A DNA stretch of 64,000 nt from Eledone cirrhosa (Eukaryota). The notes beneath the pieces were generated by a model. It ran no database searches, was not told where the DNA came from, and saw nothing but the letters and a program-made list of their open reading frames with translations. The stretch covers positions 31,372,001 to 31,436,000 of the forward strand of contig OZ024752.1 in the NCBI GenBank assembly GCA_964016885.1, given 5' to 3'. Both the position numbers and the translations under genes were made by a program. Below, piece by piece: positions 48,252 through 64,000 of this stretch. Position 1 is the stretch's first letter. The number at the start of each line of letters is the position of its first letter.

Positions 48252-51200
48252 TTACAGATATATACTCAGAGTCGGCCCATTCACTCGGGCCATTCTTGCT
48301 TCTCTCACCCATCTTTCAACAAAATGCTGGGAAGAGAGCACTTCCTTCTCTACTCTGATTTTCCTTTTCAAATGAAATTTGAAAAAGTCAATCAGAGCAT
48401 CACCGAAGAGGTAAGTGCTCGTCTTCAGCCCTTTCAAACGTGTCCACCATACTATCTCTTTCGCCATGGCCACCAGACAGATAAAAACTGCCTGCCCTTC
48501 CCGGCTAAAGGAGGAGGGCGGGGCAATCCTCACGATAGACTCAGATGATAGCTGGATCCGTCCTAAACGCGACAGCAGGTGTTCGACATAAACCCACAAG
48601 TCAGCAATTTTCGGACACTGGACGAGTGCGTGCAGGACGGTTTCGTCGCCCTGCGCGCATCTCGGACATGCCCGGCTGACGGCACCTCCATGCCTGTAGA
48701 GTTTATCCCGAACTGGCAAGGCTCCTCGGTAGCACTGCCAGGCCAGAGATTTCTGGAAGTTGTCCATAGGCCCTGGCCCGAAGGTTCTTCCGAAGAGATT
48801 GGCTAGTTGATTTTCGTCGACGCCTAGAGTTTCCCCAAGTACGTCGTCGCTCTTCCCCTCCACTAATCCTCTATAGAACGCCGAGGTGGAGTTTCCACCG
48901 ATCACATTGCCCGATTGGTCGAGGGCTGTGAGCGCCTGAAGACATTCCAGTCTCCAGGCGCTCCCTCTCGGTCTTCGCTTGACCCAGGACTGCAGCTCCG
49001 TCAAGGAAACGAGCTGGGGAAAAACGCGTCTAGCAAACGGCGACCACACCTGATCACCGTCGAGGAAGAGGTGGAGATGTCGTAGCCTGAGCGCGTGCCT
49101 GCGCATCATCAGCCACGGCATGCCCAGCCCTCCACGTAGCGGGTGTTGACAACAGATGGACCGCCTGACCATCGGAGCACGTCCCTTCCACAAAAAGCGA
49201 AAGAGCAAACGCTCCAGCGCAGTCAGGCGAGGCTTAGGACAAGGTACGACGGTTAGGCGGTAGCAGATGACAGACGCGATGTACGCGTTAGCCACCTCCG
49301 CTCGACCTTTCAGGGATAGCTTCCTCTCCGCCCATTTCTGGGTGAGAGAAGCCACCCTGCTCGTCACCTCGTCCCAGTTTTTGTCCGTCTGGAGGTCCGG
49401 ACCGAACCAGACCCCTAGCAATTTAACCGGTCCGTCCGTCCAGCGCCCGACGACGCTGTTGGACGGCATGGACCTGCCTCTCCAGGTGCCGAGCTGCAGG
49501 CCCACTGACTTTTCCTGGTTGATCATTGCTCCTGTCACCGCTTCGTATTCTCTTAGTGTAGTGCCGATCGCCTCGATGTGTTTGGCGTTCGACACCACTA
49601 CGGTGACATCGTCCGCATATGCTGACACGGATCTTCCGCATCCTAGTTCGCGCGGGACTCCCCTCAACGTCTCCAGTTTGTGCAGTAATGGCTCGAGAGT
49701 CAATACGTACAAGAGGGACGAGAGGGGACATCCTTGGCGGACCGAGCGCATGATGTTGAACGGTTCCGACAGGTGACCGTTCACTCTCACCACAGAGCAG
49801 ATGTCGCTGTGCATGGCAGCGATCCAGCCTCTGAAGACGGGCCCAAAGCCAGCCGCCCTCAGGACTGCCGCTAGGTAACGATGGTCGACCCTATCGAAAG
49901 CTTTCGACTGATCTAAATTGATCAAGGACCCACCCGTGCCAGGTTCCCTAGCTACCCTCTCTACGATGTATCGCATGAGGTGGAGGTTGTCGTGGATGGA
50001 TCTGTCGGGAATGGCGCATGTCTGCGCCTCTCCCACCAGACCACCAACGACAAGCGCCAACCTCTTTGCTAGCACCTTGGCCAAAATCTTAAACTCTGTG
50101 TTTAGCAGAGTTATGGGCCGGAAATTGTCTATGTTATCCCCCTTGTTCGGATCCTTTCTCAGCAGTGCCACCGCTCCTCGGCTCACAGAACTGGGAATTC
50201 TCCCGTTCTGTTGCCAGTTGCAGTAGACGTCCGCCAAGAGGCCTCCGAACAAGTCTGGCATCTGTACGTAAAGTTCATAGGGCAGACCATCTAAACCAGG
50301 CGATTTACCCCTTGTGCAGCCAGTCATTGCCTCCCGTACTTCAGCGGCTGTTATCGGCTTTTCGCAACACCTCGCCTCAGTGGCCGAGAGCCGCGGCAGT
50401 CCGTCGAGGTAGACACTAAAGTCCATCCCTCTACCCGGCCCCCCGCTGCCCCCGAACAGCTGAGCGAAGTGTCGCTGAAAAGCTTCACACATTTTCCCGG
50501 GATCGAGTAGCATGCGCCCGTCGTGGTCCACCAAAGACCGGATCGTGGCTTTGTTGCCACGACGCGCCTCCGCCACTCGGGCCCATTGAACGGCTTTCGT
50601 CCCCTCGTGTCTGAGAGCACGCACCCTAGCTCTGACAACGCAGCCTTCGTGCTTTGCATTGAAGAATTGGTCAAGGGCCAATTTCGCCGCAAGCACGTCG
50701 GTCGCAATGCCTTTGCTAAGCGCCTCGTCTAATTTTCTAACTAGTTCTCCCTCTGCTCTATTTTTCTCTATTGCTAAAGCCTTACTAAACCTAATCGATT
50801 CTATTCTAATCGCTCTTTTCAGAGCAAACCACCACTTGTTGTTGACGATGGCCCCCGTCAACGCCCGCTTAACTAGTTCGCTAATCCGGTCTCTGTAGGC
50901 CTTGCGCGCTGGTAAGGACGCGTTTAGCTTCCAGTAGCCGGGTCCTCGTCTATGAAGCCTATCTAAGTCAAGCACACAGGTCACGAATTTGTGGTCCGTG
51001 TAGCTGACTATCTTGAATTGTGGACAGCCTATGCTAGACCTATCTATTTCCCTACAAAATACTCTATCTAGATATGATCTGGATGACCCTATGCGGTTTG
51101 TCCAAGTCCACATTGGCACATTCGGGAAATCCAATCGGTACCTGTCAGACAGTTCAAAACGCCTGAGCAGGTTGGTGAGGCTCTTGCACCCTCCACCCCT

Positions 51201-51671
51201 ATCCGCTAATCCCACACAGTCCCAGCGTGCATCTAAGATCCCGTTCCAGTCGCCCACTAACACTAAAGAGCGGGACGTTCCAAGAAAGGTCTCCAGACGC
51301 CGGAAGAAATCAGGCCGCCCTGCTCCTGTCGGGGCATAGACGGCCACTAGCCTGAAAGCTTGCCCGTCTCCGCTGGTCACGTCCAGCACCACCAGCTTAC
51401 CCTCTGGGTCCAGGAAGATGGCCCGTATGGCGAGATCCAAACCTCTCCGAAAAAGCACAGCAACTCCTCCACCCGATCCAGGACGGCTGGGAGATGCGTA
51501 CACATCGTAGCCGCCGAAGATCGGTGCGAAGGCCCGTGCTTCGGAGATTCTGGTCTCGCTGATGGCCACTACATCTATGTTTAGTGACCTGAGGTCGTTG
51601 AGCAGGTGACCCTGCTTCCATGACGACCCCAAGCCACGCGCATTTATGCTGCCTATTCTGAGTGAGGTCAT
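48252..51671 (-). CDS. ORF2: APE endonuclease, reverse transcriptase and C-terminal Cys/His finger (1139 aa)
   Basis: SINARGL, ISET, GDWN, SYLDR, TDH, GPGYWKLN, KSPGLDGL, RPITLLN, LDQSKAFDRV, RQGCPLS, YADD, CPRC..H..C. Confidence 0.96.
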   Translation of the reverse strand: MTSLRIGSINARGLGSSWKQGHLLNDLRSLNIDVVAISETRISEARAFAPIFGGYDVYASPSRPGSGGGVAVLFRRGLDLAIRAIFLDPEGKLVVLDVTSGDGQAFRLVAVYAPTGAGRPDFFRRLETFLGTSRSLVLVGDWNGILDARWDCVGLADRGGGCKSLTNLLRRFELSDRYRLDFPNVPMWTWTNRIGSSRSYLDRVFCREIDRSSIGCPQFKIVSYTDHKFVTCVLDLDRLHRRGPGYWKLNASLPARKAYRDRISELVKRALTGAIVNNKWWFALKRAIRIESIRFSKALAIEKNRAEGELVRKLDEALSKGIATDVLAAKLALDQFFNAKHEGCVVRARVRALRHEGTKAVQWARVAEARRGNKATIRSLVDHDGRMLLDPGKMCEAFQRHFAQLFGGSGGPGRGMDFSVYLDGLPRLSATEARCCEKPITAAEVREAMTGCTRGKSPGLDGLPYELYVQMPDLFGGLLADVYCNWQQNGRIPSSVSRGAVALLRKDPNKGDNIDNFRPITLLNTEFKILAKVLAKRLALVVGGLVGEAQTCAIPDRSIHDNLHLMRYIVERVAREPGTGGSLINLDQSKAFDRVDHRYLAAVLRAAGFGPVFRGWIAAMHSDICSVVRVNGHLSEPFNIMRSVRQGCPLSSLLYVLTLEPLLHKLETLRGVPRELGCGRSVSAYADDVTVVVSNAKHIEAIGTTLREYEAVTGAMINQEKSVGLQLGTWRGRSMPSNSVVGRWTDGPVKLLGVWFGPDLQTDKNWDEVTSRVASLTQKWAERKLSLKGRAEVANAYIASVICYRLTVVPCPKPRLTALERLLFRFLWKGRAPMVRRSICCQHPLRGGLGMPWLMMRRHALRLRHLHLFLDGDQVWSPFARRVFPQLVSLTELQSWVKRRPRGSAWRLECLQALTALDQSGNVIGGNSTSAFYRGLVEGKSDDVLGETLGVDENQLANLFGRTFGPGPMDNFQKSLAWQCYRGALPVRDKLYRHGGAVSRACPRCAQGDETVLHALVQCPKIADLWVYVEHLLSRLGRIQLSSESIVRIAPPSSFSREGQAVFICLVAMAKEIVWWTRLKGLKTSTYLFGDALIDFFKFHLKRKIRVEKEVLSSQHFVERWVREARMARVNGPTLSIYL

Positions 51672-51706
51672 GTTTAAAATAGAGTGGAAAAGATGGGAAA
51701 GACCAC

Positions 51707-53803
51707 TTACCGTACTTTTGGTAGAGGAGGGATGGTTTTTACATCCCTTTTCACTTGATCGTCTGGTGAAGGGACCGTTGAATCGTCCCTTCGGCTGGTC
51801 GTCGGCTCTTCTAAGAGAATGTCTGAATATACTCTTCGATTAATGGTTCCTCCTAGGTCCCTGAAATCACCAACTGCGTTGGGGAATTTCGTTTTAATGT
51901 TTGTGTATTGTTTCTGTGCTATTTTTAGCAGTCTTATGTTAGTTGGCGTTTTGATTGGTGCTGGTATTATGTAGTCCTGTTGTGAAATGTCTGTGTGTTC
52001 AATTATGTAAGTCATTAGTTTCTTGTTGTGTGTGTTTATTGCCGTGCATTTGTTTTTCTGGGGGTGAGGTGTGGTTCTGCTATTTTCTTGTCGTTGTTGC
52101 TGGGTGTGTGTGTTTTGTTGTTGTGTTTGCGATGTTGGTGCTTGTGGTGGTGGTGTTGAAGGTGTTGTTGGCGGTGGGGTTGTCGCCGGTGGTGATGGTG
52201 GTGCTGGTGTGGGTGGTGATGGTGTTGGTGGTGTTGCTGCTGTGGGTCTCTTTGCAGTAGACTTTACCCTTTTCTCATTTCTTTCCTCCCTTTTCAAAGG
52301 CGACGATGCGCTGCTTCTGCGTTTGTGCCTTCTTGAGACCTTTTGCCATCCCTCTCCCACCTCACACTCCATGTCTGATTCTGTAAGGTCGGGGAGGGGT
52401 ACCAGCTCCACTCTTTCACTTGTTGTTGTTGGTGATGTTTGCACTGGAGTCTCTGTTGCAGCTGCATTTGGTATTGCTGTTGTTGTTGTTAATATTTCCA
52501 CTGCTGCTGCTGTCTTTGATTTCCGTGGAGTGGGTATGGGTGCCACGGACCTATCGTTCCTGGTTGCCGCTTGTCCTGTTGCTGGTAGCCGTGGAACCGG
52601 ATTCGGGAGGAGGGGGGTTTTCTCCTTTCTCATGGTCTTCTCGTTGCAGAAGGCCCTGAGGTGAGTCTTCGATCCACAGCGAAAGCATTTCGGGCGTTTG
52701 CCCTCAACACTTATGGGCAGTTGAGTGCCGTTATCGAAGTCTATCACATCCGGGATAGCTTCGATGCACTCCTGGTTGGTTTGGATTAGCATCTCAATGG
52801 AGGAGCCGACCCAATCTTCTCTTACTTTTTTCTGTACTTGCAGTACAGTTGTTTTGTCCTCGATTCCGACGAGGACAGACGCGGCCAGCCAAGAAGGGGT
52901 CATTCCGGGGGGGACGTGGGTCAGTTTGACCCTCACAATTTTTTGCCCGCAGTAGGAGGGCACCAACACCATTTCCTCGCTCCTTAGGGTCACTACTGAT
53001 TGGGCCTTTGCCTCCTGGGGTGTGGCAAAAAGTACGTCTACGGTGGCGTATTTTTTGCCTCGGGTGATGTGCGTTTTCCTCTGCCACACAGACCCCAAGG
53101 CTTTTTGTATTTGGGCCTCTGTGGCTCTTTCCACCCTACGGGATTTTGTACTTACTGTACGGTACGTGACCGTACAGTGCTCTTGGGTTTCGAAAAAATT
53201 TTTCGCTGCCTTGCAGATTGCTCGGTGTCCGTTCTTTGTCACCATCTTCTTCGCTTCCTCTAATTCCTCATTTGTTATGAGGATTGTTTCCAGGTTTTTC
53301 GCAATACCTGCAAATGAGATTGGTTTTTCTCTGCTGTTGTTGTTGTCGTCAGAGCTGCTGGTACTTTTGTTGTTGCTGCAGGTACTACGACTACTGCCTC
53401 CGCCGCTGTTGCTGTGGTTGTTGTTGGTGTTGCTGCTGCTAATGCTGTTGTTGTTTATGCTGCTGGTGATGCTGTTGCGGCTGCTACTGTTGTTTTCATT
53501 GTCACTGTTGCTGTTGTTATTACGGCTGCTACTGCTATTATTCCTGACGTCAGACGAATGAACTGGGTTTTCGTATTTCCCGCACACCTGTTTCGTCGCT
53601 GTCGTCGTCGTCGTGGAGAAACCTTGCACGCTTTGCACGAGACTTTTCTTTTCTTTCGTCACTTGCGAAAGAGAAGGGAGGGAGAGAGACACATTTAAAG
53701 AAGGGAGGGAGAGAGACAATCTTCTCTCTGCTGTAGTGATGATTGAGGAAGAAGAAGACGGAATGAGTGGGAGTGACGTATGAAATTTCTTTTTGGTAGC
53801 CAT
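51707..53803 (-). CDS. ORF1: gag-like nucleic-acid-binding protein with CCHC knuckle (698 aa from ATG)
   Basis: CFRCGSKTHLRAFC; Ser/Asn- and Pro/Thr-rich tracts; directly upstream of ORF2. Confidence 0.88.
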   Translation of the reverse strand: MATKKKFHTSLPLIPSSSSSIITTAERRLSLSLPSLNVSLSLPSLSQVTKEKKSLVQSVQGFSTTTTTATKQVCGKYENPVHSSDVRNNSSSSRNNNSNSDNENNSSSRNSITSSINNNSISSSNTNNNHSNSGGGSSRSTCSNNKSTSSSDDNNNSREKPISFAGIAKNLETILITNEELEEAKKMVTKNGHRAICKAAKNFFETQEHCTVTYRTVSTKSRRVERATEAQIQKALGSVWQRKTHITRGKKYATVDVLFATPQEAKAQSVVTLRSEEMVLVPSYCGQKIVRVKLTHVPPGMTPSWLAASVLVGIEDKTTVLQVQKKVREDWVGSSIEMLIQTNQECIEAIPDVIDFDNGTQLPISVEGKRPKCFRCGSKTHLRAFCNEKTMRKEKTPLLPNPVPRLPATGQAATRNDRSVAPIPTPRKSKTAAAVEILTTTTAIPNAAATETPVQTSPTTTSERVELVPLPDLTESDMECEVGEGWQKVSRRHKRRSSASSPLKREERNEKRVKSTAKRPTAATPPTPSPPTPAPPSPPATTPPPTTPSTPPPQAPTSQTQQQNTHTQQQRQENSRTTPHPQKNKCTAINTHNKKLMTYIIEHTDISQQDYIIPAPIKTPTNIRLLKIAQKQYTNIKTKFPNAVGDFRDLGGTINRRVYSDILLEEPTTSRRDDSTVPSPDDQVKRDVKTIPPLPKVR

Positions 53804-54016
53804 GTTTTTTTGTTTAAAATGAAATTTTGGGTACAAAACCCCAATAACTGGTTATTTAACCCCGAAGGGCCAAATAACGGACAGAAAGACCCCTCTCACG
53901 AGGAGGAGGGTGTCTTTATCAACAATTTGGTTCAAGTTTTAAACAATTTACAATTGTTTTAACGGTTAAAAATTACTATACCTTACAGAGCCGAGCCTCC
54001 GTCAACCATGGCATTC

Positions 54017-54245
54017 AATAATAATAATAATAATAAAACCACCACCACAACTAGTACTACTACTGCCGCTGTTGCTGCTAATAATACTACTACTACTAAA
54101 ACCACCACCACTACTACTACTACTACTGCTACTGCCGCTGCTGCTGCTAATACTACTACTACTACTACTACAAATAAAACCACCACCACTACTATTACTA
54201 CTACTGCCGCTGCTGCTGCTACTACTATTACTGCTGTTACAGCTT
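54017..54245. repeat. Compound (AAT/ACC/ACT/GCT)n microsatellite M; mirror copy at 60261-60489
   Basis: Directly visible. Confidence 0.93.
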
Positions 54246-56850
<2,605 letters not shown>

Positions 56851-56853
<3 letters not shown>

Positions 56854-57648
56854 GTAATAAACAATATTAGGCAATTATTCCATTTACCAGTGGTTTCTTA
56901 AAAGCAAAAAATGTTGCTTTCAATCATCAGAATGAAAAAATCCTGGTCTGTTTATTGAATTTGGATTTTAAAAAACAAAAATGCAATCTATATGAAAGTG
57001 AGGCTGGAGAAGGAAGAAGGAAAGGAAAAATAAAATAAAAACACACATGCAAACACACACACACACAAATGCATACATACACACACACACACATATATAT
57101 ATATATACATACACTCATACATACACACACACATATACACATATATATGTGTATATATATACACACATACACATACATATACACATACATACATACACAC
57201 ATAAATATCAACACATCCATACATACACATACATATATACAACCACATACACATATATACACACATATATATATAAATATAAATATATATATATGCATAC
57301 ACATACATAGCCATACACACATACATATACATACATACATACATACAATCATACCTATATACACACGTACATACATACACATACATAAATGCATACATAT
57401 GCATGTACAAAATTAGAAAAATATACACACATGCAAATAAATATAAGAAAAAATATATATTTTTTATTTTATTTTTTTTTTCCTTCTTCCTTCTCCAGCC
57501 TCACTTTCATATAGATTGCATTTTTGTTTTTTAAAATCCAAATTCAATAAACAGACCAGGATTTTTTCATTCTGATGATTGAAAGCAACATTTTTTGCTT
57601 TTAAGAAACCACTGGTAAATGGAATAATTGCCTAATATTGTTTATTAC

Positions 57649-57651
<3 letters not shown>
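56851..57651. mobile_element. Element X (family G) copy 2, centre of the large palindrome; hammerheads at 56881-56934 (-) and 57568-57621 (+)
   Basis: The outer left arm has the right-arm variant (AATATTAG) and the inner part has the left-arm sequence and forward spacer of 44760-45200. Confidence 0.9.
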
Positions 57652-60260
<2,609 letters not shown>

Positions 60261-60702
60261 AAGCTGTAACAGCAGTAATAGTAGTAGCAGCAGCAGCGGC
60301 AGTAGTAGTAATAGTAGTGGTGGTGGTTTTATTTGTAGTAGTAGTAGTAGTAGTATTAGCAGCAGCAGCGGCAGTAGCAGTAGTAGTAGTAGTAGTGGTG
60401 GTGGTTTTAGTAGTAGTAGTATTATTAGCAGCAACAGCGGCAGTAGTAGTACTAGTTGTGGTGGTGGTTTTATTATTATTATTATTATTGAATGCCATGG
60501 TTGACGGAGGCTCGGCTCTGTAAGGTATAGTAATTTTTAACCGTTAAAACAATTGTAAATTGTTTAAAACTTGAACCAAATTGTTGATAAAGACACCCTC
60601 CTCCTCGTGAGAGGGGTCTTTCTGTCCGTTATTTGGCCCTTCGGGGTTAAATAACCAGTTATTGGGGTTTTGTACCCAAAATTTCATTTTAAACAAAAAA
60701 AC

Positions 60703-62793
60703 ATGGCTACCAAAAAGAAATTTCATACGTCACTCCCACTCATTCCGTCTTCTTCTTCCTCAATCATCACTACAGCAGAGAGAAGATTGTCTCTCTCCCT
60801 CCCTTCTTTAAATGTGTCTCTCTCCCTCCCTTCTCTTTCGCAAGTGACGAAAGAAAAGAAAAGTCTCGTGCAAAGCGTGCAAGGTTTCTCCACGACGACG
60901 ACGACAGCGACGAAACAGGTGTGCGGGAAATACGAAAACCCAGTTCATTCGTCTGACGTCAGGAATAATAGCAGTAGCAGCCGTAATAACAACAGCAACA
61001 GTGACAATGAAAACAACAGTAGCAGCCGCAACAGCATCACCAGCAGCATAAACAACAACAGCATTAGCAGCAGCAACACCAACAACAACCACAGCAACAG
61101 CGGCGGAGGCAGTAGTCGTAGTACCTGCAGCAACAACAAAAGTACCAGCAGCTCTGACGACAACAACAACAGCAGAGAAAAACCAATCTCATTTGCAGGT
61201 ATTGCGAAAAACCTGGAAACAATCCTCATAACAAATGAGGAATTAGAGGAAGCGAAGAAGATGGTGACAAAGAACGGACACCGAGCAATCTGCAAGGCAG
61301 CGAAAAATTTTTTCGAAACCCAAGAGCACTGTACGGTCACGTACCGTACAGTAAGTACAAAATCCCGTAGGGTGGAAAGAGCCACAGAGGCCCAAATACA
61401 AAAAGCCTTGGGGTCTGTGTGGCAGAGGAAAACGCACATCACCCGAGGCAAAAAATACGCCACCGTAGACGTACTTTTTGCCACACCCCAGGAGGCAAAG
61501 GCCCAATCAGTAGTGACCCTAAGGAGCGAGGAAATGGTGTTGGTGCCCTCCTACTGCGGGCAAAAAATTGTGAGGGTCAAACTGACCCACGTCCCCCCCG
61601 GAATGACCCCTTCTTGGCTGGCCGCGTCTGTCCTCGTCGGAATCGAGGACAAAACAACTGTACTGCAAGTACAGAAAAAAGTAAGAGAAGATTGGGTCGG
61701 CTCCTCCATTGAGATGCTAATCCAAACCAACCAGGAGTGCATCGAAGCTATCCCGGATGTGATAGACTTCGATAACGGCACTCAACTGCCCATAAGTGTT
61801 GAGGGCAAACGCCCGAAATGCTTTCGCTGTGGATCGAAGACTCACCTCAGGGCCTTCTGCAACGAGAAGACCATGAGAAAGGAGAAAACCCCCCTCCTCC
61901 CGAATCCGGTTCCACGGCTACCAGCAACAGGACAAGCGGCAACCAGGAACGATAGGTCCGTGGCACCCATACCCACTCCACGGAAATCAAAGACAGCAGC
62001 AGCAGTGGAAATATTAACAACAACAACAGCAATACCAAATGCAGCTGCAACAGAGACTCCAGTGCAAACATCACCAACAACAACAAGTGAAAGAGTGGAG
62101 CTGGTACCCCTCCCCGACCTTACAGAATCAGACATGGAGTGTGAGGTGGGAGAGGGATGGCAAAAGGTCTCAAGAAGGCACAAACGCAGAAGCAGCGCAT
62201 CGTCGCCTTTGAAAAGGGAGGAAAGAAATGAGAAAAGGGTAAAGTCTACTGCAAAGAGACCCACAGCAGCAACACCACCAACACCATCACCACCCACACC
62301 AGCACCACCATCACCACCGGCGACAACCCCACCGCCAACAACACCTTCAACACCACAAGCACCAACATCGCAAACACAACAACAAAACACACACACCCAG
62401 CAACAACGACAAGAAAATAGCAGAACCACACCCCACCCCCAGAAAAACAAATGCACGGCAATAAACACACACAACAAGAAACTAATGACTTACATAATTG
62501 AACACACAGACATTTCACAACAGGACTACATAATACCAGCACCAATCAAAACGCCAACTAACATAAGACTGCTAAAAATAGCACAGAAACAATACACAAA
62601 CATTAAAACGAAATTCCCCAACGCAGTTGGTGATTTCAGGGACCTAGGAGGAACCATTAATCGAAGAGTATATTCAGACATTCTCTTAGAAGAGCCGACG
62701 ACCAGCCGAAGGGACGATCCAACGGTCCCTTCACCAGACGATCAAGTGAAAAGGGATGTAAAAACCATCCCTCCTCTACCAAAAATACGGTAA
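60703..62793 (+). CDS. ORF1 of the second copy (696 aa from ATG)
   Basis: Same protein with a 2-Pro indel and S/P and V/I changes. Confidence 0.88.
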   Translation: MATKKKFHTSLPLIPSSSSSIITTAERRLSLSLPSLNVSLSLPSLSQVTKEKKSLVQSVQGFSTTTTTATKQVCGKYENPVHSSDVRNNSSSSRNNNSNSDNENNSSSRNSITSSINNNSISSSNTNNNHSNSGGGSSRSTCSNNKSTSSSDDNNNSREKPISFAGIAKNLETILITNEELEEAKKMVTKNGHRAICKAAKNFFETQEHCTVTYRTVSTKSRRVERATEAQIQKALGSVWQRKTHITRGKKYATVDVLFATPQEAKAQSVVTLRSEEMVLVPSYCGQKIVRVKLTHVPPGMTPSWLAASVLVGIEDKTTVLQVQKKVREDWVGSSIEMLIQTNQECIEAIPDVIDFDNGTQLPISVEGKRPKCFRCGSKTHLRAFCNEKTMRKEKTPLLPNPVPRLPATGQAATRNDRSVAPIPTPRKSKTAAAVEILTTTTAIPNAAATETPVQTSPTTTSERVELVPLPDLTESDMECEVGEGWQKVSRRHKRRSSASSPLKREERNEKRVKSTAKRPTAATPPTPSPPTPAPPSPPATTPPPTTPSTPQAPTSQTQQQNTHTQQQRQENSRTTPHPQKNKCTAINTHNKKLMTYIIEHTDISQQDYIIPAPIKTPTNIRLLKIAQKQYTNIKTKFPNAVGDFRDLGGTINRRVYSDILLEEPTTSRRDDPTVPSPDDQVKRDVKTIPPLPKIR

Positions 62794-62828
62794 GTGGTCT
62801 TTCCCATCTTTTCCACTCTATTTTAAAC

Positions 62829-64000
62829 ATGACCTCACTCAGAATAGGCAGCATAAATGCGCGTGGCTTGGGGTCGTCATGGAAGCAGGGTCACCTGCTC
62901 AACGACCTCAGGTCACTAAACATAGATGTAGTGGCCATCAGCGAGACCAGAATCTCCGAAGCACGGGCCTTCGCACCGATCTTCGGCGGCTACGATGTGT
63001 ACGCATCTCCCAGCCGTCCTGGATCGGGTGGAGGAGTTGCTGTGCTTTTTCGGAGAGGTTTGGATCTCGCCATACGGGCCATCTTCCTGGACCCAGAGGG
63101 TAAGCTGGTGGTGCTGGACGTGACCAGCGGAGACGGGCAAGCTTTCAGGCTAGTGGCCGTCTATGCCCCGACAGGAGCAGGGCGGCCTGATTTCTTCCGG
63201 CGTCTGGAGACCTTTCTTGGAACGTCCCGCTCTTTAGTGTTAGTGGGCGACTGGAACGGGATCTTAGATGCACGCTGGGACTGTGTGGGATTAGCGGATA
63301 GGGGTGGAGGGTGCAAGAGCCTCACCAACCTGCTCAGGCGTTTTGAACTGTCTGACAGGTACCGATTGGATTTCCCGAATGTGCCAATGTGGACTTGGAC
63401 AAACCGCATAGGGTCATCCAGATCATATCTAGATAGAGTATTTTGTAGGGAAATAGATAGGTCTAGCATAGGCTGTCCACAATTCAAGATAGTCAGCTAC
63501 ACGGACCACAAATTCGTGATCTGTGTGCTTGACTTAGATAGGCTTCATAGACGAGGACCCGGCTACTGGAAGCTAAACGCGTCCTTACCAGCGCGCAAGG
63601 CCTACAGAGACCGGATTAGCGAACTAGTTAAGCGGGCGTTGACGGGGGCCATCGTCAACAACAAGTGGTGGTTTGCTCTGAAAAGAGCGATTAGAATAGA
63701 ATCGATTAGGTTTAGTAAGGCTTTAGCAATAGAGAAAAATAGAGCAGAGGGAGAACTAGTTAGAAAATTAGACGAGGCGCTTAGCAAAGGCATTGCGACC
63801 GACGTGCTTGCGGCGAAATTGGCCCTTGACCAATTCTTCAATGCAAAGCACGAAGGCTGCGTTGTCAGAGCAAGGGTGCGTGCTCTCAGACACGAGGGGA
63901 CGAAAGCCGTTCAATGGGCCCGAGTGGCGGAGGCGCGTCGTGGCAACAAAGCCACGATCCGGTCTTTGGTGGACCACGACGGGCGCATGCTACTCGATCC
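62829..64000 (+). CDS. ORF2 N-terminal part (APE domain and linker), truncated by the window edge
   Basis: ATGACCTCACTC at 62829, mirror of 51671. Confidence 0.92.
   Translation, partial: MTSLRIGSINARGLGSSWKQGHLLNDLRSLNIDVVAISETRISEARAFAPIFGGYDVYASPSRPGSGGGVAVLFRRGLDLAIRAIFLDPEGKLVVLDVTSGDGQAFRLVAVYAPTGAGRPDFFRRLETFLGTSRSLVLVGDWNGILDARWDCVGLADRGGGCKSLTNLLRRFELSDRYRLDFPNVPMWTWTNRIGSSRSYLDRVFCREIDRSSIGCPQFKIVSYTDHKFVICVLDLDRLHRRGPGYWKLNASLPARKAYRDRISELVKRALTGAIVNNKWWFALKRAIRIESIRFSKALAIEKNRAEGELVRKLDEALSKGIATDVLAAKLALDQFFNAKHEGCVVRARVRALRHEGTKAVQWARVAEARRGNKATIRSLVDHDGRMLLD

Follow-up and report, generated by a model that had tools for sequence, protein, structure and literature searches.

An inverted triplication around two near-identical LINE copies in Eledone cirrhosa, and the possible part of LINE cDNA recombination in its origin

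The original human work on triplications that are inverted and nested within duplications (duplication-inverted triplication-duplication, DUP-TRP/INV-DUP) is said to be that of Carvalho et al. As set out in the available part of a published account (PMC4689423), such rearrangements consist of a direct-inverted-direct triplication within a duplication and have two new junctions, one of which lies in an inverted repeat. The same arrangement is found in a stretch of 64,000 nucleotides from the octopus Eledone cirrhosa (assembly GCA_964016885.1, contig OZ024752.1, positions 31,372,001 to 31,436,000 of the forward strand; hereafter the window), where it includes two oppositely oriented copies of a long interspersed nuclear element (LINE). 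Here, however, only about 10 kb were added, and the other junction is formed by the 3' terminus of a LINE that differs from the resident copy nearby. We propose tentatively, as an explanation that falls just short of probable, that the triplication arose when a new LINE complementary DNA (cDNA), derived from a different source copy, underwent recombination with the resident copy next to it.

Chimeras between L1 cDNA and endogenous L1 copies were reportedly obtained in cell culture by Gilbert, Symer and colleagues. Homology-driven recombination of L1 cDNA has also been described in human cells, including two events with an endogenous full-length L1PA3 (PMC13526784). Those events resemble our proposal in that a cDNA primed by target-primed reverse transcription (TPRT) is resolved through its homology to a genomic copy of the element or to broken ends that are homologous; they differ in that they were obtained in human cell lines and reporter assays, and the accessible text of that study describes distal rearrangements and not a local inverted triplication. 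A second likeness is offered by L1-mediated fold-backs, in which a triplication lies between two fold-back junctions, one of them carrying TPRT cDNA (PMC11702581). One fold-back there is TPRT-primed, with breakpoints about 6.3 kb apart and sister ends tethered by cDNA, whereas the 5' join, in the part of the report available, shows 0-2 bp of microhomology and CHML cDNA instead of the kilobases of LINE homology and the mosaic, ORF-intact element (ORF, open reading frame) proposed here. The templates of templated or chimeric tumor L1 insertions generally measure less than 250 bp and lie no more than 15 bp from the site according to the portion consulted of bioRxiv 10.1101/2024.08.27.596794, compared with about 4.9 kb, inverted, at the present locus. 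Origin-dependent inverted-repeat amplification, or ODIRA (PMC4689423), and the spontaneous inverted triplications (TRP/INVs) that cluster in AT-rich palindromic DNA of Aspergillus (bioRxiv 10.1101/2025.01.14.632981) share with our locus a junction where an inverted repeat is interrupted, in DNA rich in AT and in palindromes; unlike in ODIRA, the first junction here shows no short repeat of this kind within the limits of the window. In a literature search that covered few subscription papers, we found no description of cDNA-LINE recombination yielding an inverted triplication.

The locus was delimited by self-comparison of the window (megablast and masked runs), which gives the segment order a-s-A, inverted LINE-M-A, s-A-M-LINE. 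Segment a (44590-44779, + strand) is the left arm of an inverted repeat that is older and 190 bp long. It differs from its partner a' by four single-nucleotide polymorphisms (SNPs) and is followed by a CA-rich spacer of 419 bp, s (44780-45198, +), which is identical to 57042-57460. The first direct copy of the triplicated 2.8-kb segment, A1 (45199-47990, +), starts with a' (45199-45388) and abuts the left LINE (47991-54016, - strand; 6,026 bp). Next comes M' (54017-54245, -), in which the resident LINE's microsatellite-rich 5' flank of 229 bp recurs in inverted orientation with a sequence identical to 60261-60489, and then the middle, inverted copy of A (A2', 54246-57041, -), whose final 190 bp are a mosaic of a' and a. 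The second copy of s (57042-57460, +) is direct and forms the midpoint of a large palindrome, beyond which lie the third, direct copy of A (A3, 57461-60260, +), carrying the empty A/M site, then M itself (60261-60489, +), which ends in (ATT)6, and the right LINE (60490-64000, +), presumed to be the resident, inside which the window ends. The (ATT)6 of M and its mirror are the tied longest ATT/AAT run within the window.

Segment A is thus present three times, direct-inverted-direct, with cores that are identical once the TA runs are collapsed, and on either side of it s is duplicated directly and M plus LINE in inverted orientation. This architecture is that of DUP-TRP/INV-DUP, a triplication nested in a duplication, since the middle copy is inverted, its sides are duplicated and one junction falls inside a pre-existing inverted repeat. 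The TA runs at 45389, 45802 and 46838 and at their mirrors have lengths of 70/72/74, 92/94/94 and 16/16/18 in the three copies, which argues that the A copies are not simple pastes of one sequence. A 25-bp minisatellite within A (47187-47361, with copies at 54875-55049 and 59457-59631) is identical in all three, which suggests an accurate consensus there.

Base-by-base comparison of the arms was made by global alignment of 57461-64000 with the reverse complement of 50500-57041 and yields seven SNPs and three gaps, of which five SNPs and one 6-bp gap belong to the LINE; the other two gaps are TA-run lengths. An earlier note on this DNA had listed six differences between the two LINEs and had reported none in the first 1.85 kb or so of the element, in M, or in A apart from TA lengths. 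All six were recovered, and each of the other segments was found to contain 0 substitutions. They extend over 62351-63872 (+) and comprise an in-frame 6-bp indel (CACCAC at 62351, its mirror aligned at 52150-52155, with 52147 equivalent because placement within the CAC run is ambiguous) and, given as right/left copy, the SNPs 62433/52067, 62719/51781, 62785/51715, 63520/50980 and 63872/50628. Two of the SNPs are synonymous and three non-synonymous (S/P and V/I in ORF1, T231/I in ORF2); both reading frames are preserved by all six differences, and there are no homopolymer indels among them. Nucleotides 1-1860 of the LINE show 0 SNPs and 0 gaps and nucleotides 1861-3511 show five SNPs and one gap, the two copies differing within the visible 3.5 kb only from nucleotide 1862 onward. 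There are 0 differences in M (229 bp) and in s (419 bp), and A1 and A3 (2,792 bp) are separated by 0 SNPs and three TA-length gaps. The two remaining SNPs, 57477 and 57478, absent from the earlier list, fall in the inverted repeat of 190 bp, where the second template switch accounts for them.

The duplication is very young, as 0 substitutions occur in approximately 7.7 kb of pairwise comparison across the duplicated flank and the 5' part of the LINE (upper bound 0.04%), whereas the 3' parts of the two LINEs have diverged by 0.3%. Because the flanks are too young for 0.3% to build up in place, a second LINE source is needed, and we infer that one arm, whether in the animal or during assembly, took up sequence from a second LINE copy. 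To judge from the two copies, the left LINE is likely a mosaic with a 3' part from another source and a 5' part identical to the right copy. The two a-s-A blocks have 3,153 non-TA bases in common and 0 SNPs between them; for two random haplotypes the probability of this would be about 0.03 at 1% heterozygosity and 0.24 at 0.1%, and heterozygosity in Octopus vulgaris is given as above 1.1% (PMC6472339, available part). The lack of any SNP between these blocks favors a sister chromatid as template.

It is well supported that the 3' part of the LINE is divergent and the flank is not. Under a uniform distribution over the whole arm, all six events would fall in the last 1,650 bp with p=2.6e-4 (1.8e-3 by a largest-gap test). 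That the step lies inside ORF1 is moderately supported: with a uniform prior inside the LINE its 95% interval is 61207-62351 (+; mirror about 52150-53300), with a median at 62115, in ORF1, and the Bayes factor for a switch inside the LINE over a switch at its 5' end (replacement of the whole LINE) is only 8.5. Four other causes were rejected. Hypermutable repeats in the 3' part do not explain the step, as the invariant part is the richer in slippage-prone trinucleotide runs (114 bases in the LINE and 144 in M, against 18 in the variable part). CpG decay fails because none of the five LINE SNPs is at a CpG site, and in-place divergence after an old duplication, with conversion between the arms, fails because A1, which lies outside the central palindrome, is also free of SNPs. 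Pure fold-back of a single molecule can yield neither frame-preserving SNPs confined to one part nor the first junction; to this extent the step does argue against a read fold-back, as had been claimed, but the same step is to be expected from a fold-back read that bridges two real LINE copies, and likewise from contamination of the consensus by 5'-truncated copies.

The first junction (47981-48000) joins an ATT-like site (ATAATAAT at 47981) to the apparent 3' end of the left LINE. The only AATAAA of the 261-bp 3' untranslated region starts 10 nt from the join at 47990, three A's are followed by ATT-like host bases, and one base is shared with the empty A/M site at 60260. The 5' end of the resident LINE directly follows (ATT)6, so both visible LINE ends touch ATT-type sequence, which amounts to one independent 5' end and one 3' end only. 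The left LINE is not a canonical insertion: no target site duplication was found at it, since the M' of the resident follows its 5' end without a repeat of the end of A, and the AAT run at that 5' end merely resembles such a duplication. The second junction (56869-57023) is a 155-bp stretch of perfect identity that is bordered by a'-type bases at the two outer diagnostic sites (56865, 56868) and by a-type bases at the two next to s (57024, 57025). The crossover pattern is clean at 4/4 diagnostic sites and places the switch within 56869-57023; the rejoining proposed in the earlier note can thereby be mapped as a homologous switch in the 190-bp a/a' inverted repeat. As single-stranded DNA, a-s-a' is predicted to fold with -217 kcal/mol and with 188/190 bases of a paired to a'. 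ODIRA places both junctions at short interrupted inverted repeats, and here only the second qualifies; to be an inverted-repeat junction, the first would need a loop of 6.25 kb and a partner outside the window.

By its encoded proteins, the element is assigned to the L1 group of LINEs. In the left copy, ORF2 (48252-51671, -; 1,139 aa) has an APE endonuclease domain, a reverse transcriptase domain with YADD at residue 685 and a C-terminal CCHC / zf-RVT region (PF03372, PF00078 and PF13966 in Pfam), and its best match in the PDB is human L1 ORF2p (E 3e-52; R2, 1e-21). ORF1 (51707-53803, -; 698 aa) bears a CX2CX4HX4C knuckle at residue 373. In the right copy (+), ORF1 occupies 60703-62793, and ORF2 starts at 62829 and runs off the window; as far as visible, both ORFs are open in both copies. 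Serine/asparagine-rich and proline/threonine-rich low-complexity tracts (60950-61180 and 62260-62400) lie around a conserved core of ORF1. This core has many distant relatives (302 matches, the best 150 of the 302 all at most 41% identical); no Pfam match to ORF1 was found at the curated cut-off, an exact look-up matched 0/3 proteins, and a word search with ORF1 gave 0 matches among 7,995 candidates scored. ORF2 gave 53 matches, the best with 79% identity over most of its length, besides ten shorter matches, fragments of 34-85%; the only close named match is an endonuclease fragment in a gene model of Octopus sinensis (64% over 61 aa), which, like the TA-rich landscape of the window, agrees with an octopus as host. 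Scans against GTDB gave no matches, as expected for an animal element, an Rfam scan gave 0 matches, and Pfam scans of four other frames gave none at the curated cut-off. At ORF2 residue 231, where the left copy has T, the six of 11 examined relatives that cover the site have I (four), T (one) and R (one), and P0005 also has I in the multiple alignment.

From the architecture of the ORFs and a putative microsatellite-like target we take the element to be a candidate member of the Tx1 clade. It resembles the described Tx1-clade LINEs in its two ORFs, its APE-RT-CCHC ORF2 (RT, reverse transcriptase), its knuckle-bearing ORF1 and a putative microsatellite-like target at both ends (PMC4494074). In the available part of that source, target preference within the clade is recognized from more than 20% of flanks and the targets named are (TC)n, (TTC)n, (TTCC)n/(TTTC)n, U2 and transposons; the ATT preference suggested here concerns two ends only, and no description of Tx1 elements with an ATT target was found in the literature searched. 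In O. vulgaris, 13 families with together 421 L1-Tx1 insertions, recent and near full-length, are reported (PMC13282606, as far as available).

Under the mechanism that we favor, the starting locus would have been a-s-A-M-LINE, and ORF2p would have primed reverse transcription at 47990, where A ends in ATT-like sequence, on RNA from a different LINE copy about 0.3% diverged and in an orientation opposed to that of the resident. After at least 4.1 kb, pairing would have set in, probably within ORF1, between the cDNA and the resident copy as carried by a sister chromatid that was intact or by an identical homologue, and synthesis would then have proceeded through the 5' end of the LINE, M and A, until a second switch in the 155 bp of a/a' identity restored the forward orientation. 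An alternative order, in which the broken sister end first folds back at a/a' and then anneals to the cDNA, would give the same product. Of the course of events proposed in the earlier note, the priming at 47990 of a cDNA from another source agrees with the AATAAA close to the join, with the ATT-like site and with the second source that the young flanks require. Copying through M and A has to be amended: A and M are parted by the nick that primes the cDNA, which requires a sister chromatid that is intact, or else an identical homologue, as the source of the M-A join and excludes the element's own chromatid. The order of the two switches, given there as cDNA invasion followed by rejoining, cannot be read from the sequence. 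It is quite possible, and slightly less assured than cDNA recombination as such, that in an invertebrate germ line a single retrotransposition, by a Tx1-like LINE, took the adjacent opposite-strand resident as homology donor and produced a complete DUP-TRP/INV-DUP together with a full-length recombinant element with both ORFs open.

Several points weigh against recombination of a new cDNA with the resident. Inside the LINE alone the step is statistically weak (p=0.011, 0.075 by the largest gap, Kolmogorov-Smirnov 0.043), and polishing is a possible cause, the pattern having p=0.027 under a model that protects the first 500 bp. The earlier note proposed that the left LINE is the chimera; two copies alone cannot show which one is mosaic, and the polarization of residue 231, one of six sites, says too little to decide this. 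A near-identical third copy was not found in the databases searched, nor a further LINE copy inside the window, and mosaicism is accordingly read from two sequences. Apart from three A's, the first junction shows no poly(A) and no clear repeat tail; if the 3' flank of the resident, which lies outside the window, has the same ATT-like bases, this junction needs no reverse transcription. The new insertion must also have hit a site that lies 230 bp away from a full-length member of its own family. The differences in TA-run length fit mutation or consensus noise alike. Finally, homology-free joins appear to be commoner than homology-driven ones, which are suppressed by mismatches (PMC13526784, available part).

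The same architecture could have arisen without a new insertion, by two template switches of DNA within the locus (of the type of microhomology-mediated break-induced replication or fork stalling and template switching) with ATT microhomology at the 3' flank of the resident, the triplication being real and the six differences being added later through consensus or polishing contamination from copies that are often 5'-truncated, through a misjoin that leads the right arm into another copy or, rarely, through ectopic gene conversion. Alleles borrowed in this way would keep the frame, as observed, the pattern has p=0.02-0.05 under simple models with a protected 5' part, and the recent L1-Tx1 insertions counted in O. 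vulgaris (PMC13282606) indicate a donor pool. We nevertheless regard this combination as unlikely, if well worth retaining, for the loop of 6.25 kb exceeds by far the spacers of 235-1,221 bp in six other inverted pairs measured in the window, any conversion tract must fit within the very short age of the duplication, and T231 of the left copy is a minority residue against I in 4/6 relatives, so that, at this one site, the left arm is not obviously pulled to the ancestral allele.

The structure may instead be an artefact of assembly, in which one haplotype has, at 47990, a second LINE insertion of the ordinary kind and a read folded back at the a/a' hairpin joined this to the other haplotype, leaving the arms identical across the span of that read and different beyond it. 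Both the step and the a/a' crossover are predicted by such a bridge, for which the strong predicted single-strand fold of a-s-a' is suited, and fold-back reads are reported to make up about 0.55-0.6% of Oxford Nanopore genomic reads; the same source, in its available part, gives them as virtually absent from PacBio HiFi data (PMC12870357). One chimeric read would have to outweigh the normal reads, which runs counter to what is generally known of assemblers, and the two haplotypes would have to be free of SNPs over the 3,153 bp discussed above, which the heterozygosity of O. vulgaris makes hard to expect, or to have been homogenized by polishing. Older, diverged fold-backs in the window, moreover, show that the process occurs in vivo. 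We hold an artefact of this kind to be distinctly unlikely; taken jointly, the readings that ascribe the step, or the entire structure, in part to assembly amount to an appreciable possibility that stays clearly below probable.

Two events could also have followed each other without recombination of cDNA, an inverted insertion at 47990 being completed and the two LINEs recombining later, in a heterozygote, between homologues, with the a/a' switch completing the triplication. Repeat-mediated rearrangements are well known (PMC10760644, in the part available), and the same product with the same step would result, but the M-A join would have to come from a homologue that lacks the new insertion, and yet 0 SNPs separate the A copies; this course is improbable. 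An ODIRA-like inverted triplication with a short loop, formed at a/a' and the ATT tracts surrounding M and then followed by the wholly independent insertion of a full-length LINE at the duplicated ATT site, would suit the weakness of the step within the LINE and the ATT-like sequence at both ends of the left copy, but it requires two separate recent events at one site, is at odds with the identity of both 5' junctions, (ATT)6 included, and leads one to expect about 5.6 differences in the first 1,860 bp where 0 are observed, and is very improbable indeed.

The sequence to the left of the locus is itself rich in repeats. About 52% of 1-44000 is microsatellite of the TA/CA type, and many local palindromes and inverted pairs with 82-99.9% identity occur in 1-44600, for example at 10307-10487, 34523-34862, 39830-40198, 43233-43503, 43608-43715 and 44152-44485; several of these inverted repeats also occur as direct copies elsewhere. 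The region may be either a hotspot of fold-back or home to a family of palindromic repeats, and the commonness of older inverted duplications over this range of identity suggests that fold-back is a recurring, real process here. Another very young inverted duplication (2927-3640 and 4471-5184; 714 bp, one SNP, spacer of 830 bp) runs out into TA arrays. A tandem unit of 60 bp forms two arrays (24476-24890 and 35844-36016) within a larger dispersed repeat (24000-24648 and 35387-36016, 93%).

No gene was found in the amplified segment, and a single unvalidated locus without one makes this a case report and not a new system. Each step of the cDNA route is known from human L1 work, and their combination in an invertebrate would be new. 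If the route is correct, the locus would represent a natural case outside mammals in which both junctions are mapped and an intact recombinant LINE is left behind, indicating that the same repair route operates in an animal germ line. It would also provide a signature that can be searched for, namely a LINE 3' end at one junction, a step in divergence, and a switch in an inverted repeat at the other junction. Inverted triplications and recombination between LINEs would then have a direct source in LINEs that target microsatellites and gather at the same tracts.

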